Of a DNA stretch of 28,077 nt, positions 3,294-28,077 are shown one piece after another. Each line of letters begins with the position of its first letter. The stretch's first letter is position 1. The translations under genes and the position numbers were made by a program. Below the pieces are notes generated by a model. It was not told the origin of the DNA. It searched no databases and saw nothing but the letters and a program-made list of their open reading frames with translations. The stretch is from a virus, in the UHGV virus genome UHGV-0119843; one strand, given 5' to 3'.

Positions 3294-4172
3294 TCAGTAG
3301 TTATGTACTGAAGGAGGTAATTCTTTATTCTTAAGTCTCATCCATGCGGAAAGATTCGTTGGTCCGTCTGGCTCATTGATATCAACATCTCGTGTGTGGT
3401 TTATTAAAACGTCTCTCGCCATTCCAATAACATACGAGAACTCATGACCGTAGTCGTAGCATCTGCCGGAATAGTTCGATTGAATTTGTTTTAATGCCGG
3501 ATACAGTTCGCTGAATAATGCCTGTGAACGGTTAGCATAATCCCATAGCCATACAAGGCTGTTTGCTTCTTTTGCAGAAAGCTCGTTGGTTTTCTTCTCT
3601 TGTTTGCCAATGAACTCACCTTCAAGCACTACCCTGTGGATGTACTCTACGGCCAGCGGGATTTGTTCAATTGAAAGTTCATCAATGCTGTCAATACCAA
3701 AACGCTGATGAACCATATTGTATGCATCGTCATAGCGAAGTCCTTTCTTTCCTACCAGCATGTTTACTGCATCGCGTAGCGGTGTTCTTTCCTCAACAGT
3801 GGTTTTCTTTCCTTTTACATACTCGCCATGTTTGCGAATTGAAGGCAGAACTTCTGCTGTTACCCACTTGCGGAATTTGTGCGGGACTGAACCTTTATTG
3901 ACTGCATCGCGGCAGCGCAGAACCAATGTATACATACCTGATTCGCTCACAATGCTTAGATTCTGCTCACCACCAAGGGTGTAACTTAAAGTTACTCCCT
4001 TTTCATCGTCATCAAGTGCAGTAAGCGCCTTGCGTGAGTTAGTCAAATCTAAAGCATCACAAACATCTTTAGCTACAAACCACGGCTCACCGCACTTGTT
4101 GATGACGCGGATTTCACTGTCGCCGAATTTGAAGATGGTGAAATCGTTTTGTGCCTTTGCTATACTTTTCAT
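3294..4172 (-). CDS. ant: Antirepressor Ant (BRO-N domain N-terminus)
   Basis: 292-aa ORF directly downstream of arc on the same strand; N-terminus contains the BRO-N/AntA hallmark ...[16 protein letters not shown]...; position matches P22 immI arc-ant operon. Confidence 0.8.
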
Positions 4173-4760: not shown

Positions 4761-5180
4761 TTAGTCTTGCTTTGTTGATGGTATAAGAGATGCGTTTGCC
4801 TCTTTTGGCTTCAAGGTATACATCCCACCATTAAAAGGATCTACAGCAAGCCAACCAATTAACCCACCAAACACAAGGTTTCCACCAATATACCAACCAT
4901 TAGCATTGGCTTTGATTGGCAGGGTAACTGGTTCGTACCCATCCTTTTCCATAGTGATCTGGTAGCTCTTTTTGCCAAAATAACTACCATCTGACTTGGC
5001 AAGAGTTACTCCTTGCGGGGTCTTGCCTTGCGCAACAATCACGCCTGATTCGTCTTTTACTTTAAAGCTCGCACCGGAAGGATTGCTGTTCACTTGCACG
5101 AGCTGTGTTTCGTCACCAACAATAGTTGCGCACCCAGATAACAATATAGCGCCAGCAACAACGCCGATAATCCTCTTCAT
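4761..5180 (-). CDS. Lipoprotein with PEGA-like beta domain and C-terminal glycine-rich hydrophobic segment; occupies the sieA position (candidate superinfection-exclusion/cargo protein)
   Basis: Signal peptide plus lipobox MKRIIGVVAGAILLSGC from ATG 5180; NPSGASF...GKTPQG...EKDGYEP pattern resembles PEGA domains; GWYIGGNLVFGGLIGWL glycine-zipper-like tail; function inferred from locus only. Confidence 0.6.
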   Translation of the reverse strand: MKRIIGVVAGAILLSGCATIVGDETQLVQVNSNPSGASFKVKDESGVIVAQGKTPQGVTLAKSDGSYFGKKSYQITMEKDGYEPVTLPIKANANGWYIGGNLVFGGLIGWLAVDPFNGGMYTLKPKEANASLIPSTKQD

Positions 5181-23253: not shown

Positions 23254-23626
23254 CTGAACCTCCCCGGCGCGTTATGAGCGCCACCAGGGAGCCGATATCC
23301 TGATTATTCAGGAACGTCAGGATTTTAACGGCTAAAGCAGAGACGATTACGGCACCAATAGCATCCAGAGGTTTATCACTGTATCCGGTCAAGTTCGCCA
23401 GCTTGGAGCCAACCAACCCAGAGCAAAGAATCCCGGCAATATATGACACGATAAAATATGCCAGTCGGCGCGATGCACTCAGATCTGCAGCTGTTGCTAT
23501 GTAGAATACAGCCCCTGCAAATGCGCCAAATACAACGCCGTAATCAGTTCCGGTCAGCAGTCCATAAACACTGGCACCCGTCAGGGCACCACCAGCCAGC
23601 CCAGTACCGGAAATCGGATCGGACAT
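23240..23626 (-). CDS. Putative holin (multi-TM small membrane protein, first gene of lysis cassette)
   Basis: 128-aa Gly/Ala-rich hydrophobic protein with several TM segments and charged C-terminus; GAGGGGG SD before ATG 23626. Confidence 0.55.
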   Translation of the reverse strand: MSDPISGTGLAGGALTGASVYGLLTGTDYGVVFGAFAGAVFYIATAADLSASRRLAYFIVSYIAGILCSGLVGSKLANLTGYSDKPLDAIGAVIVSALAVKILTFLNNQDIGSLVALITRRGGSGGAK

Positions 23627-23670
23627 TTAGCCCCCTCTTAATTGCTGTTGGTCCTCTCAGAACGAGGGGA

Positions 23671-23699
23671 AACAAAAAAGGCCGCATTAAGGCGGCCTT
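23671..23699 (-). terminator. Rho-independent terminator between moron ORF and lysis cassette
   Basis: Minus-strand hairpin AAGGCCGC-CUUAAU-GCGGCCUU followed by UUUUUUGUU (plus A-run 23671-23679). Confidence 0.65.
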
Positions 23700-23716
23700 G
23701 GTAAGGTATAGTTTTT

Positions 23717-24313
23717 TTAAGATAAACTTTGATTGATATACTCATGACACCCAAAAATAAAGGCGTTTTGTGCATCAATAAATGACTTTTTTTCTTCCGG
23801 AGTAAAATACCCTTTTGTAAAACATACTTTTAGCGCTTTTTGAAGATCTGCCGTCAGGGTTATCAACTTACAACCTTCCTCATCAGGCCTTATTAATAGA
23901 AGTAATTTATTTTTACTTATTTCAGCGGCCTTTATTGGAACTTGAATCTCCTCAGGGAAAACACCCTTAGCCAATATATCCATATTCTTATTTCCGACCA
24001 GATGCCATTGCTCAAATGTGCTGGCCAACATAATTACGTCTGTCACATGCTCAGCGCCAGCAAAACGTATTTGTTGCGCCAATTCTTTATTAGTATTCAA
24101 GTGAGCCTGTAATGTGGCTAAGGCAAAATTTTCTTTGATTGCCCTGTATGCAACCCAACCAGTTATTCCTGCGGCAATAACGCCTGCAAGAGCAGTAATG
24201 AGTGTTTCAAAAGGAAAGGAAGAACTGATTTCAATTGGCGGTAATTTTTCTATTACCAAGGTCAACTCGCCAGTAGTTTTTTCGAAAGCGTACGGTACGT
24301 TTTGCCAAGTCAT
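23717..24313 (-). CDS. Hypothetical membrane-anchored protein (AT-rich moron between Q-like gene and lysis cassette)
   Basis: 198-aa ORF, AGGAGG 4 nt upstream of ATG 24313, one predicted TM helix (LITALAGVIAAGITGWVAY); AT-rich; no recognisable catalytic motif. Confidence 0.6.
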   Translation of the reverse strand: MTWQNVPYAFEKTTGELTLVIEKLPPIEISSSFPFETLITALAGVIAAGITGWVAYRAIKENFALATLQAHLNTNKELAQQIRFAGAEHVTDVIMLASTFEQWHLVGNKNMDILAKGVFPEEIQVPIKAAEISKNKLLLLIRPDEEGCKLITLTADLQKALKVCFTKGYFTPEEKKSFIDAQNAFIFGCHEYINQSLS

Positions 24314-24343
24314 GAAGCCTCCTGAGTTTCAGAGGAATCATAA

Positions 24344-24368
24344 CAAAAAAACCCGCTCAATGGCGGGG
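24344..24368 (-). terminator. Intrinsic terminator just downstream of Q-like gene (tR'-like)
   Basis: Minus-strand 5-bp GC stem CCCGC-CAUUGA-GCGGG followed by UUUUUUU (plus A-run 24345-24351); short stem, moderate confidence. Confidence 0.45.
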
Positions 24369-24419
24369 TCTTAATGTTGTGTTGCTCAGTTCGCTTTAAC
24401 GTCCCGAGCCTACCACAAT

Positions 24420-24998
24420 TTAAGCACTTTCTTGCTCACTCTGCAACTTAAATCTGTCGCTATTTGTGCCGAATGCGTCACAAACTGGAGCGTACAGGAT
24501 CGATTCTGCAAGACTTAGCCAAGTGTCAATGCGTCGACGACAGGTGATCAGCGGCCAGTCAGGATGTTTAGCCTGCAGTTCATTGGCCATCTGCAACTTG
24601 CTCTTACGAAGACGATACCGGTCAACAATCACGCTATAGAGCGATCGGTAGTCATCATTCATCAGTACTGAAGCAATGACACCGTCCACTAACAACCCTT
24701 CTTCATCTGAACAGAACGCCAGGCCGCTTTTATTTTTGCTGTTGAGAATTTCACGCAGGTACGCTTCAAGTTCAGGCTTGGTGATACCCGCTATCTTCAT
24801 CCGGCGTAGCGCTTCATTGATAGCTGTCTTGGTGATTTTCCCGGATGCCAGAAGCTGGTTAAACATGTTTCCACCACTACCACCGCCGATATAAGACCAG
24901 CGGCCCCACATGCGCAACTTGCCTTGTATCCAGATACTTTCCAGAGTACGAAGGCGAACCATTTCACCTGATTTGCCAACTTCAGAAGGATTAATCAT
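24420..24998 (-). CDS. Putative late-gene antiterminator (Q-like, by position)
   Basis: 192-aa ORF immediately upstream of a terminator and the lysis cassette and downstream of a DUF968-like gene (as quuQ/ydfU in E. coli Qin); no sequence motif confirmed. Confidence 0.4.
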   Translation of the reverse strand: MINPSEVGKSGEMVRLRTLESIWIQGKLRMWGRWSYIGGGSGGNMFNQLLASGKITKTAINEALRRMKIAGITKPELEAYLREILNSKNKSGLAFCSDEEGLLVDGVIASVLMNDDYRSLYSVIVDRYRLRKSKLQMANELQAKHPDWPLITCRRRIDTWLSLAESILYAPVCDAFGTNSDRFKLQSEQESA

Positions 24999-25012
24999 TT
25001 AGCATTCTCCAC

Positions 25013-26008
25013 TTACGCCAGTACGCCTATTGCCAGCGCACGATCGATAAAACGAAATATCAGCTCCAGCTGGGAGCCATACTTCTCTTCAAATGCCACG
25101 GTATCCGCATGCAGCTCGTCGTGATGCTTTCTGCACAAAGGCAACACAAAGAGGTCATGCGCTTTTGTACCCATTCCACCCTGACCGTGGCCTATCAGGT
25201 GGTGGGGATCATCAGCAGGCTTTCCACAACATGCACACGGCTGTGTCTTAACCCAGCGCGTGTACTTTTCATTAACCCAGCGGCGACGTTTCGGGCGTAA
25301 CATAAAAGACTCCGGCGACTCCGGATCCACTTTCAGCGCCAGCACCTTTTTCGCTTTATCCTGGATGATGCTGGTGGCAGGAACCAAAGGCACAAGGTCA
25401 CTTTCCCGGGTGACAGACGGCACAACAGGCTTCGGTAATCTCAGAGCCTTACGGGCTGCACTTTCCGGTAAGGCATCCGCCAGGTCATTACGAACCAGCC
25501 ACCAGCACAGTTCCGGCATTGTCATAACGTGACTATCATCAAAACCGAGATCCCGACGCACGACAGACAACACCCAGCGAGCACAGTTATCCGTTGCCAT
25601 TGATTCCAGCCGTTCCGTGAACTGATCGCGCAGCTGGTTATCGCAGTGCCAGCACAGACGGATTGCGCCCGGAGCGTGTCGCATTGTGGTCATGTTCTCG
25701 CTGTGCCAGTCGGAATGAGGCCACTGGCAGCCTTTTTCACGAAGTAACCAGCTTTCAAGACATTCCACGCCACCAGCACGACGGATCACTGCCTCATTGC
25801 GGAACACGGCCCGAACGGCAGGATCATCCGCCAGCGGTTGTGATGCAGCCGGAACGGCACCACTGGCGAAAGATGAATAACGTTCCGGCTCAGGCTCCAG
25901 CAGGACACGCCCCTGCATAAACAGTGGCATCAGCTCTGAACCTGGCCTGAACAATACGATCCCCATACGCGGGGCAATTTCAGGGGTCAGTAGTGCTCTC
26001 ACGGTCAC
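25013..26008 (-). CDS. DUF968 (YdfU-like) protein with C-terminal Cys/His cluster (HNH-like)
   Basis: 331-aa ORF; C-terminal CACCGK...DPHHLIGHGQGG...PLCRKHH.ELH motif; nin-region location; start codon (GTG 26008 versus internal ATG) uncertain. Confidence 0.65.
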   Translation of the reverse strand: MTVRALLTPEIAPRMGIVLFRPGSELMPLFMQGRVLLEPEPERYSSFASGAVPAASQPLADDPAVRAVFRNEAVIRRAGGVECLESWLLREKGCQWPHSDWHSENMTTMRHAPGAIRLCWHCDNQLRDQFTERLESMATDNCARWVLSVVRRDLGFDDSHVMTMPELCWWLVRNDLADALPESAARKALRLPKPVVPSVTRESDLVPLVPATSIIQDKAKKVLALKVDPESPESFMLRPKRRRWVNEKYTRWVKTQPCACCGKPADDPHHLIGHGQGGMGTKAHDLFVLPLCRKHHDELHADTVAFEEKYGSQLELIFRFIDRALAIGVLA

Positions 26009-26009
26009 C

Positions 26010-26819
26010 TCAATGAACGGTATCGAGCAGCTTTAACAGCTCAGGGAATCGGGATTCGAAGAAATGCGGCTGCGTCTCGCGCGGATTTGCGGGACTGGTG
26101 ATGTTCTTGCCGAACATGCAGCCTTTCGCCGTCAGCGACCAGAATTTTTTGATGTTGTTAATCGCAGTGCGGCTGTATCGTTCACGTTGTTCAACGATCC
26201 CCAGCTTCGCCATCTGGTGATATGCCTGATTAGCTGTCAGGCGGATACCATACTGCTTCAGCAGTGCACTCAATGATAGCTTGGGGCGGCTTGAGCCATC
26301 AGGCGCGTCAGCAGGAGCATCAATGGCATAGCGCGGTGCCAGATTCGGTAAGCCAACAGCCTCCTGGAGTTTCTGACAGGCACCAAGCACTGAAGAGTTA
26401 GACAGGTTTAACTCCCGGCGCATAAAGTCCAGCAGGATCACGCCAGCCTGCATCTTGTCAGCAGCCTGTCCGGATAATTTTTCCGGTGCGCTGGTTACCA
26501 TATCGAAAGTACGGATCACCTTCAGATGGAATGACGGGCTGATCCACATTGCATAGGCATACACCAGTTCCTTGCAGACATACGTTCCCCGTTCATTTCC
26601 CCCATGAATCACACTCACCGGGTCAACACCCAAATTCTGGGTGTTGGTCAATTCATGAACAAGCTCAACAGTTTGTTGGCTGGAAAGAAACTTTCCCGGC
26701 TCCTTGGTTCTGGCATTTGCACCAGATGCTACTGCTGCGCGATGCAGATCGTTCAGGCTGTAACGCCCATAAGCATCACGACGAACTTCAATACCATCAA
26801 TGACCATCAGATTATTCAT
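26010..26819 (-). CDS. KilA-N domain protein (antirepressor-like)
   Basis: 269-aa ORF; N-terminal VIDGIEVRRDAYGRYSLNDLHRAA...PGKFL resembles KilA-N/APSES DNA-binding domain. Confidence 0.65.
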   Translation of the reverse strand: MNNLMVIDGIEVRRDAYGRYSLNDLHRAAVASGANARTKEPGKFLSSQQTVELVHELTNTQNLGVDPVSVIHGGNERGTYVCKELVYAYAMWISPSFHLKVIRTFDMVTSAPEKLSGQAADKMQAGVILLDFMRRELNLSNSSVLGACQKLQEAVGLPNLAPRYAIDAPADAPDGSSRPKLSLSALLKQYGIRLTANQAYHQMAKLGIVEQRERYSRTAINNIKKFWSLTAKGCMFGKNITSPANPRETQPHFFESRFPELLKLLDTVH

Positions 26820-26838
26820 ACTTCGTTTCTCCTCTTAA

Positions 26839-27228
26839 TCAGGCGGCTGCACCCGCCGGTTTCTCATACTTACTGATAGTGATCTCGACCTTCCCTTTCG
26901 GGATAACCGGTCCCCACTCAACCAGCATTCTTTTCACCTGACTGTCGTCCTCCCACACACCCGCGTGGGTCAGGGCGTCAAACAGCGCCTTGTTATAGTT
27001 GTCCAGATCGCGGATCCGGTTATCCGGTGGAAACAACACGATCTCCACTGAAGCAGGTGCCGACGTTGGTTTTGGCAGACGACGTAACTGCTCAACTATT
27101 GCTGCACACGCCGCGCTCTGGAATTTTCGCCCCGCCGCGCTTATCAGGCTCTTACCTGCAAACGCCCCTTTGTTGGGGTGTCGCCAGTACGTGTTCACGC
27201 TGGGCGGAAAAGGCAGGATCAGCTTCAT
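26839..27228 (-). CDS. rusA: Holliday junction resolvase RusA
   Basis: 129-aa ORF; ...LPFPPSVNTYWRH...RDLDNYNKALFDALTHAGVWEDDSQV... matches RusA conserved motifs (DLDN, FDAL); start overlaps upstream stop (ATGA). Confidence 0.9.
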   Translation of the reverse strand: MKLILPFPPSVNTYWRHPNKGAFAGKSLISAAGRKFQSAACAAIVEQLRRLPKPTSAPASVEIVLFPPDNRIRDLDNYNKALFDALTHAGVWEDDSQVKRMLVEWGPVIPKGKVEITISKYEKPAGAAA

Positions 27229-27551
27229 GCTTTCAGGCCTCTCTCATGTAACCAGTGGGTTGCACGCAGCCTTGCGTTTTCCTCACCGGCAAGCAGTGAG
27301 CGGATAATCCCGACCGCCTCGCTGTCGTCGTCCTTCACCGCGGTATGAAGCGTTATCCCCCGGGCCACGCCACGCTTTATCGTGATGACGCCTTTTTTCT
27401 CCAGTGCGCGAAGATGCTCCACCGCTGCATTCACCGAACGGTATCCCAGCATGGTTGCCACCTCCTGATTGGTTGGCGGGAAGCCACGTTCTTTCTGATA
27501 AGAAATCAGCATATCCAGCACCTGCTGCTGGCATTGAGTTAACGTCGTCAT
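27225..27551 (-). CDS. LexA N-terminal DNA-binding-domain-like protein lacking peptidase domain
   Basis: 108 aa; MTTLTQCQQQVLDMLISYQKERGFPPTNQEVATMLGYRSVNAAVEHLRALEKKGVI.I..G.ARGI.L aligns by eye with the LexA winged-helix N-terminus (MKALTARQQEVFDLI...[46 protein letters not shown]); no S24 Ser/Lys motifs. Confidence 0.7.
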   Translation of the reverse strand: MTTLTQCQQQVLDMLISYQKERGFPPTNQEVATMLGYRSVNAAVEHLRALEKKGVITIKRGVARGITLHTAVKDDDSEAVGIIRSLLAGEENARLRATHWLHERGLKA

Positions 27552-27895
27552 GCCGCCATCTCCCTGACCAGTTTTTCTGCCTGCTGGCGAACCTGCGCCA
27601 GAAACGCCTCACCACATGCCTCAAGTTCATCGCGCCCGATGTAGCTGATTGCCGGTCCCTTCCAGGTCTTGTCGAAAACAGCAATAGCACCAGCGAAGAA
27701 AGCGCCTGTCGGCACCTGCTTCTCGTCCTTCGGGATAAACCAGGCAGGCAGTTCAAAACCAATACGCCCGCGAATAAAAGCAATATGATCTGCATCTTCC
27801 GGCCACCACACTTCGCTGGTGGCAGCTTTGATCAGGAAAACATAGCGTCCGCCCTTATCACGCATGGCACTGGCATGCTTCATGATGTAACGCAT
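27548..27895 (-). CDS. nin-region hypothetical protein
   Basis: Downstream part of ORF-track ORF 27548..28069; start set at ATG 27895 (GAAGGG upstream); N-terminal part of the track ORF is better explained by an overlapping methyltransferase gene in another frame; start uncertain. Confidence 0.45.
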   Translation of the reverse strand: MRYIMKHASAMRDKGGRYVFLIKAATSEVWWPEDADHIAFIRGRIGFELPAWFIPKDEKQVPTGAFFAGAIAVFDKTWKGPAISYIGRDELEACGEAFLAQVRQQAEKLVREMAA

Positions 27896-28076
27896 GCCGC
27901 CCTTCATGCTGACTGGCGCGGCTGTACGGGGGATTACCAAAGGCAGCACCTTTAAGCTCCGCAAGACGTTCAGACCAGTCATGCGCCAGCGCGTTGTCTT
28001 CCGCAGTGTAATAAGCGGCACATTTGGCGTTATCACCATCAGTGAACAGATCCAGAACAAATGGGCCAAACAGGGT
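27858..28076 (-). CDS. DNA methyltransferase, C-terminal fragment (gene start lies beyond the window edge)
   Basis: Own translation of the minus strand in the frame ending with TGA at 27860-27858 gives ...TLFGPFVLDLFTDGDNAKCAAYYTAEDNALAHDWSERLAELKGAAFGNPPYSRASQHEGRHALHHEACQCHA, containing an NPPY (motif IV-like) signature; not in the supplied ORF track because it is 5'-truncated. Confidence 0.4.
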   Translation of the reverse strand, partial: TLFGPFVLDLFTDGDNAKCAAYYTAEDNALAHDWSERLAELKGAAFGNPPYSRASQHEGRHALHHEACQCHA

Positions 28077-28077
28077 G

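Follow-up and report, generated by a model that had tools for sequence, protein, structure and literature searches.

Phage proteins built on the DNA-binding domain of LexA, the repressor of the SOS response, are already known. The closest studied analogue of the protein described here, when the two are set side by side by description, is gp6 of GIL01, a tectivirus of Bacillus thuringiensis. This truncated LexA homologue acts at the -35 element of the late promoter P3 and activates it (PMC6182141). In this work, we analysed a stretch of virus DNA of 28,077 nucleotides (UHGV virus genome UHGV-0119843, called the window below in its whole length), in which a LexA-like gene encodes a protein of 108 amino acids (aa). 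The gene starts with ATG and lies on the minus strand at positions 27225..27551, as identified by open reading frame (ORF) calling and by Pfam, NCBIfam and PHROG; the strand was absent from the first-pass annotation of this DNA. The protein is a homologue of the LexA N-terminal domain without the S24 peptidase. The explanation that we favour, tentatively and at slightly less than an even chance, is that it is a RecA-insensitive regulator of early lytic growth acting at LexA-box-like sites.

The second system for comparison is LexA of E. coli. Its N-terminal domain (structures 1lea and 3jso) shares with the phage protein the winged helix-turn-helix (wHTH) over residues 2-69, the residues S39, N41, A42 and E45, and the wing motif RGI. 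In contrast to the phage protein, LexA has the S24 peptidase and dimerisation domain, the Ala-Gly site and Glu44, whereas the phage protein adds a helix-loop-helix of 30 residues. LexA is the product of an autoregulated host gene, while the LexA-like protein is encoded by a phage in an early lytic operon. The cleavage fragment of LexA (residues 1-84) is a free DNA-binding domain with SOS-box activity, as is proposed here for the phage protein, but it is removed by ClpXP, whereas the phage protein carries an extra helical module.

The differences from GIL01 gp6 are of another kind. That protein is 44% identical to Bacillus LexA and ends just past the wing, whereas the family studied here is of the enterobacterial type and adds a C-terminal hairpin. 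The two are likely to be of independent origin, because gp6 is nearest to Bacillus LexA and the LexA-like protein is nearest to E. coli LexA. For lysogeny GIL01 depends on repression by host LexA, whereas the lambdoid and P22-like phages considered here have their own CI-type repressors. Moreover, the target and the activator role of gp6 are proven, while those of the LexA-like family are proposals. The LexA-like gene has long been annotated and is extremely common. What is new is descriptive: a C-terminal hairpin that is conserved, the loss of Glu44 without exception, a long-standing pairing with RusA, SOS boxes that recur around relatives, and the broken Dam gene upstream.

A LexA DNA-binding domain with a two-helix extension

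The Pfam profile LexA_DNA_bind (PF01726) matched residues 1-65 of the LexA-like protein over the whole model (positions 1-65 of 65) with E=2.9e-19 and a score of 69 bits, the cutoff being 23.7 bits. The NCBIfam equivalog for lexA, TIGR00498, was matched over model positions 1-91 of 203 only, and the score of 70.8 was below its cutoff of 110.95. No match to Peptidase_S24 was found in the 108-aa protein by the Pfam and NCBIfam profile searches; the C-terminal S24 peptidase domain with the Ser119/Lys156 dyad, which characterises LexA proper, is absent. The homology over about 70 residues and the lack of the peptidase had both been proposed by the first-pass annotation, and both hold. Placement in an unrelated wHTH family, which would have spoken against the proposal, is not favoured by the profile searches, as all other wHTH models remained below their gathering thresholds: HTH_Crp_2 (18.8 versus 27), Rrf2 (16.1 versus 30), HrcA (12.7 versus 21) and the MarR-type HTH_24 (11.9 versus 21.9). 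The search for defence systems with PADLOC returned a weak generic wHTH match only.

The AlphaFold2 (AF2) model of the protein, with a mean predicted local distance difference test (pLDDT) score of 79, contains three helices and a two-strand wing. The LexA-type wHTH, delimited by Pfam, AF2 and Foldseek, covers residues 1-69 (27345..27551, minus strand), with helices at residues 6-22, 28-35 and 40-52 and the beta-wing at 56-59 and 65-68. When superposed on the N-terminal domain of 3jso, a chain of the LexA-DNA complex, the model deviated by 1.3-1.5 Å across 67-70 residues, of which about 50% are identical, and the comparison of the wHTH with 3jso, 1lea and 1jhh by Foldseek gave root-mean-square deviations (rmsd) of 1.3-1.6 Å, again with about 50% identity. 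In the Protein Data Bank (PDB), the protein is closest to E. coli LexA and to the isolated N-terminal domain 1lea (E=7e-16).

The last 35 residues are a conserved two-helix module and not a leftover tail. The helix-loop-helix, delimited by AF2 and the family alignment, comprises residues 75-103 (27243..27329, minus strand), with helices at 75-87 and 93-103 separated by a short loop, and was modelled with a pLDDT of about 87. In the alignment of relatives that are 38-50% identical, A97 and L101 are invariant and the hydrophobic or small residues I82, I83, L86, L87, A93 and W100 are conserved, including in mEp390 gp43 and in proteins of Klebsiella phages. Across the clades at this level of identity the length stays within 104-112 aa, and the family members end in ...GLKA or ...GVKV. 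A fold search of the PDB gave no match for residues 75-103 beyond the wHTH; the candidates returned for the hairpin were only generic regulators consisting of a wHTH plus helices, with poor rmsd and nothing specific, and they were rejected. The helix-loop-helix has no counterpart in LexA and probably takes the place of the LexA C-terminal domain in dimerisation.

These data bear on the idea that the protein is a decaying remnant of a full-length LexA or CI-type repressor, or else a substrate or decoy for trans cleavage stimulated by RecA*. The idea has some basis in the alignments: the HMMER alignment reaches LexA residue 86 and sets LLAGE (residues 86-90) opposite the LexA cleavage site VAAGE, with Ala88-Gly89 facing LexA A84-G85, and the TIGR00498 match extends to model position 91. 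We nevertheless consider it very improbable. The length and the hairpin are conserved between clades, the gene is under purifying selection (a ratio of nonsynonymous to synonymous polymorphism, pN/pS, of 0.16 among 109 alleles), and no peptidase-coding remnant follows, since rusA overlaps the stop codon. The self-cleavage site itself is not conserved in the family, as the Ala-Gly pair is replaced by AK, AN or VG in close relatives and by ER, TR or DD, among others, elsewhere. Furthermore, the AF2 model predicts a helix for this segment instead of an extended cleavage loop. Ala88-Gly89 was therefore dropped as a candidate for a retained cleavage site or a trans-cleavage substrate. As the pair varies in close relatives and is missing in distant ones, the LexA-like protein is not built for cleavage.

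Recognition helix and SOS boxes

Helix 3 of LexA contacts DNA through Ser39, Asn41, Ala42, Glu44 and Glu45 (PMC3091678). The recognition helix of the window protein, located by alignments, corresponds to residues 39-52 (SVNAAVEHLRALEK; 27396..27437, minus strand) and keeps four of these five residues (S39, N41, A42 and E45), the fifth, E44, being replaced by Val. Across the LexA-like family S39, N41, A42 and A43 are essentially invariant, as they are in LexA, and the wing motif R64-G65-I66, kept in the window protein, is nearly invariant as well. Helices one position away from that of LexA occur in several clades; in the Klebsiella-type loci L245-L249, for instance, the helix (SPNAAAEHLK) differs at residue 44 only. 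With this pattern, the protein could have a specificity like that of LexA but a changed affinity, or else a shifted specificity.

Candidate target sites were then sought in the window and in relatives of the locus. For this, we used a weight matrix derived from 26 SOS boxes of E. coli, the training sites scoring 12.8-27.3 bits. Among the close loci with full flanks, 26 of 44 have at least one box of at least 15 bits, while mononucleotide shuffles yielded 0-1 such boxes per 300 kb. The boxes of the relatives score 21-27 bits and are located at several sites. One of them (TACTGTAAAAATAAACAGTG, 21-25 bits) occupies codons 3-9 of the gene for a 350-aa DNA methyltransferase situated between Q and the holin, as in mEp460 (L005, 41021-41040), SfV (L006, 34170-34189), locus L001 (16149-16168) and STE15. 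Its variants TACTGTAAATTTAAACAGTA and TACTGTAAAAATATCCAGTA recur in diverged clades, which suggests that the box is selected within the coding sequence. The LexA-like gene is also present, 3.9-6.4 kb upstream, in 65 of the 68 loci having this box.

Another box of 25 bits (TACTGTTTTTACATACAGTA) is found in a cI-like gene, in the part coding for the linker between the helix-turn-helix and S24 regions (mEp460, 31970-31989). It recurs in at least 120 IMG/VR contigs, and the LexA-like gene is present in 31 of the 36 loci with this immunity box. A further SOS box lies at the dinI-like gene of mEp460. In SfIV (L004) a perfect box, TACTGTATTTATGAACAGTA, is positioned at 4765-4784 within a 160-bp spacer between rusA, which has an internal stop in this phage, and the KilA-N-type gene; five IMG/VR loci have a box between rusA and the next gene as well, at +764 from the start of the LexA-like gene. 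The location of the SfIV box 5' of the KilA-N-type gene resembles the arrangement of LexA-controlled antirepressors. In the window, the gap between rusA and the KilA-N gene is 19 nt and contains no SOS box.

The Klebsiella-type clade has its box in front of the LexA-like gene itself. In all five loci (L245-L249), an SOS box overlaps the -10 element of a promoter located 533 nt 5' of the gene, and the box is present in every one of them, yet its sequence has diverged among the loci. The sigma-70-like promoter (TTGCAT, an 18-nt spacer and ATAATA; 4440-4493 in L245) is followed in L245 by a 123-aa ORF, the LexA-like gene, a 67-aa ORF and the genes for RusA-like, DUF968 and Q-like proteins. The module, including Q, may be directly SOS-inducible in this clade. 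It should be noted that the association between the LexA-like gene and the methyltransferase and immunity boxes was set aside as independent support and is treated as a lead only, in view of kinship and physical linkage.

Several results weigh against the view that LexA-box-like sites are the targets. The first-pass annotation had pointed to a search for CTGT-N8-ACAG in the prophage, and in the window this search did not rise above chance: with at most one mismatch 16 matches were found versus 9.5 ± 3.2 expected, and 4 of 100 shuffles had 16 or more. The only exact match is inside a coding region. Likewise, the matrix found no match of 11 bits or more in the whole 28 kb. No box was found within -6 to +7 kb in 18 of the 44 close loci (41%), and since both the window and these loci have none, a linked phage-borne SOS box is not required. 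The joint presence of the LexA-like gene and the methyltransferase and immunity boxes does not count as independent support, given the close kinship of these loci and the physical linkage of the elements, 3-6 kb apart. As for the helix, Glu44 is lost in every family member (position 44 carries no charge, being V, A, T, F, L or Y), residues 45-46 are also altered in some clades (SPNAATDMLR) and protein P0086 has SVNTIAGH, whereas host LexA keeps one recognition helix. The specificity of the family may therefore differ from that of LexA and also among clades. The gene is dispensable too, because natural variants exist in which Dam is followed by RusA without it. Finally, no DNA-binding experiment on the LexA-like family was found in the literature searched.

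The same results feed a different explanation, which we hold to be somewhat unlikely: the protein would be a phage-specific regulator whose LexA-derived wHTH has been re-targeted to an operator other than the SOS box, activating or repressing a phage promoter. The only studied truncated phage homologue of LexA, GIL01 gp6, indeed uses a non-LexA site and activates (PMC6182141). The replacement of Glu44 throughout the family and the variation of the helix by clade (V44, A44, F44 or T44-D45-M46) point in this direction, as do the lack of a nearby SOS box in the window and in 41% of the close loci and the constant position of the gene a few genes 5' of a Q-like late regulator. However, scanning 23600-28077 for inverted repeats yielded four short weak pairs only, and no palindrome recurred in the module. 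The invariance of S39, N41, A42 and A43 and the helices with a single difference from LexA also speak against this explanation, and an additional late activator would not obviously be needed where late genes are under Q antitermination.

Returning to the explanation that we favour, we infer DNA binding, dimerisation, the target sequence and the direction of regulation as follows. The LexA wHTH, joined to the family-specific helix-loop-helix in place of the S24 peptidase and dimerisation domain, would be co-transcribed with the rusA, KilA-N, DUF968 and Q-like genes of the rightward early operon of lambdoid and P22-like phages. Because the gene sits in this operon, the protein is expected to be made during lytic growth, as a delayed-early product together with RusA, and not in the lysogen, as far as the sequence tells. 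It would dimerise via the C-terminal hairpin and bind LexA-box-like palindromes with half-sites of the CTGT type. Since it cannot be cleaved, it would hold sites of the SOS-box type after the SOS response has destroyed host LexA. The outcome could be repression or, as with GIL01 gp6, activation of host or phage genes controlled by SOS boxes. The free N-terminal fragment of LexA retains some SOS-box binding and repression, and its degradation by ClpXP is needed for full SOS induction (PMC10584840). A stable and dimerising phage version would counteract this. The SOS-box and operator interpretation of the first-pass annotation is thus reasonable and partly supported, though unproven.

A more specific proposal, which we regard as unlikely, is that the LexA-like protein and RusA form a unit by which the phage switches the SOS response off again. 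The uncleavable LexA mimic of the early lytic stage would re-occupy SOS boxes after the loss of host LexA. Its targets would be host SOS genes such as ruvAB, the LexA-controlled antirepressors of rival prophages, and the phage genes guarded by SOS boxes (the late-region methyltransferase, KilA-N and dinI-like genes). By acting on the SOS-box promoter of its own gene, it would also establish negative feedback in the Klebsiella-type clade. The ruvAB product may compete with RusA for junctions.

The LexA-like gene is also carried by phages encoding Shiga toxin (Stx2a and Stx2c) or cdt and by Shigella serotype-converting phages. If the protein does act at SOS boxes and is immune to RecA, then in a large share of E. 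coli strains the SOS response would be reshaped by a phage-encoded factor when prophages are induced, with possible effects on mutagenesis, prophage cross-talk and the induction of toxin phages. It would also be a second, independently evolved borrowing of LexA's DNA-binding domain by phages, after GIL01 gp6. Should it regulate within the phage only, it would be an ordinary gene of the nin region.

The early operon and the pairing with RusA

The LexA-like gene, rusA and the genes at 24420..26819 form one rightward early (nin-type) operon of a P22-like prophage. The order in the window is Dam, LexA-like, RusA, KilA-N, DUF968 and Q-like, all on the same strand with short gaps or none. The rusA gene (26839..27228, minus strand) encodes a Holliday-junction resolvase of 129 aa (Pfam RusA, 56 bits; PHROG 34, E=1e-57). 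It is followed, on the minus strand and as assigned by Pfam, by the genes for the KilA-N protein (26010-26819), the DUF968/HNH-like protein (25013-26008) and the DUF1133 Q-like antiterminator (24420-24998). A scan for promoters and terminators over 23500-28077 remained near or below the shuffle expectation, with no promoter- or terminator-like signal above it between Dam and Q. The only notable feature was a terminator-like hairpin after the Q-like gene (24367-24352). The same gene order is present in SfV, mEp460, STE15 and E. coli EC93, and the position between the replication genes and Q is also shared by SfV, mEp460, SfIV, mEp390 and Klebsiella phages. The early-right location 5' of rusA, DUF968 and Q is that of PHROG 362 and SfV orf42, and the protein belongs to PHROG 362 by profile as well (residues 1-107 against model positions 1-105 of 106, E=1.5e-59).

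Each end of the LexA-like gene shares four bases with a neighbour, ATGA on the coding strand and tcat on the plus strand. At 27548..27551 (minus strand) the LexA-like start overlaps the stop codon of the Dam remnant upstream, and at 27225..27228 (minus strand) the LexA-like stop overlaps the rusA start. These overlaps and the location of rusA directly 3' had been noticed by the first-pass annotation and are confirmed, and so is the prophage setting, by the P22-like gene content. Translational coupling had been proposed from them, but the upstream overlap does not lead from a full-length Dam gene in this prophage. The 3' part of that gene, which codes for a phage N6-adenine methyltransferase, is located at 27548..28077 on the minus strand, its 5' end being beyond the window. 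The upstream ORF matched TIGR01712 over model positions 74-165 only. Between 27900 and 27899, 11 bp are deleted (CAATACATCAC, present in mEp460 and EC93), and in translation the N-terminal frame stops about 13 codons past the deletion. The Dam gene is a pseudogene here, and as it is frameshifted, the upstream overlap cannot give normal coupled translation from full-length Dam. A GGGAG motif similar to a Shine-Dalgarno sequence, kept in mEp460 and EC93, is positioned 8 nt 5' of the LexA-like ATG (27560..27564, minus strand).

The junction with rusA has a common sequence in all 82 close loci with downstream sequence, while the 5' neighbour is Dam with the ATGA junction in 60 of the 82 and a PerC-like gene ending in TAATG in the other 22. 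In 82 loci of distant relatives that share only 42-51% identity, the RusA start is at most a few bases away from the stop in 56; RusA is encoded downstream in 75 of the 82, and DUF968 comes after in 76. The pair of LexA-like protein and RusA is conserved down to about 45% identity; it is old but not obligatory. In the Klebsiella phage ST846-OXA48phi9.1, a small ORF stands in the place of RusA. Conversely, L271, L278, L280 and L286 cleanly lack the LexA-like gene: Dam is followed directly by RusA at a spacing equal to the Dam length, and identity over the remaining module is 91-99%.

It follows naturally to ask whether the protein serves RusA itself, as a non-transcriptional DNA-binding accessory of the recombination module that targets, modulates or protects RusA on replicating phage DNA. 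The stop/start overlap in 82 of 82 close loci would fix its ratio to the resolvase, the adjacency persists in the distant relatives as counted above, and the neighbours (Dam, RusA and the DUF968/HNH-like protein) act on DNA. This role is nonetheless improbable. RusA occurs without the LexA-like gene at the four clean Dam-to-RusA junctions, some members have no adjacent RusA (the Klebsiella phage L003, L241 and insertion variants), and adjacency in the nin region is often mere modular inheritance. Moreover, a LexA-like recognition helix for specific sequences would be unexpected in a structure-specific cofactor.

Distribution, annotation and prophage background

The LexA-like protein matches gp46 of phage mEp460 at 100% identity and corresponds to SfV orf42. 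With SfV orf42 and with the homologues in SfII, SfIV, the cdtI phage, the Stx2a and Stx2c phages and others it shares 97-99% identity. The homologues of mEp460, SfV, SfII, SfIV, the cdtI phage and the Stx2c phage belong to the same family and have the same neighbours; the window differs from the SfV orf42 and mEp460 gp46 loci by its P22-like prophage setting and its frameshifted Dam gene, not by the protein. Of 5426 complete E. coli genomes, 2233 (41%) contain the 327-nt gene, in up to four copies each.

In thousands of genomes the protein is annotated as "LexA family transcriptional regulator" (e.g., WP_000210170 and WP_000210171). Older records mislabel it as "SOS-response repressor and protease LexA", and the label of PHROG 362 is "transcriptional repressor". 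In a survey of Stx phages (PMC8136144), the protein forms pham 237, named "LexA family transcriptional regulator pfam01726", which has pfam01726 as its only domain and occurs in 15 of these phages. No functional study of the protein was found in the literature searched, which holds catalogue mentions only; a paper on STM14_3218-3220 of Gifsy-1, considered as a candidate, proved unrelated.

Other proteins in the collection (P0131, P0149, P0152, P0153, P0155, P0156 and others; 140-350 aa) contain two tandem stretches similar to LexA_DNA_bind. Each of these single chains could mimic a LexA dimer.

Positions 1-24400 of the window are of the P22 type, with genes for the coat, portal, terminase and injection proteins and for the head-binding domain of the tailspike. 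A P22-type Ant (Bro-N and P22_AR_C domains) is encoded at 3294-4172. The P22-like prophage thus carries a nin module typical of SfV, which has Mu-like tail genes, and of mEp460, which has lambda-like tail genes; the full combination of P22-like genes with this nin module was present in no complete E. coli genome of the collection. The window also contains a 198-aa ORF (23717-24313, minus strand) without a Pfam or PADLOC match, situated between the holin genes on one side and the Q-like gene and its terminator on the other. This ORF is conserved in E. coli EC93 and fills the slot that in relatives is used by the methyltransferase with the SOS box.

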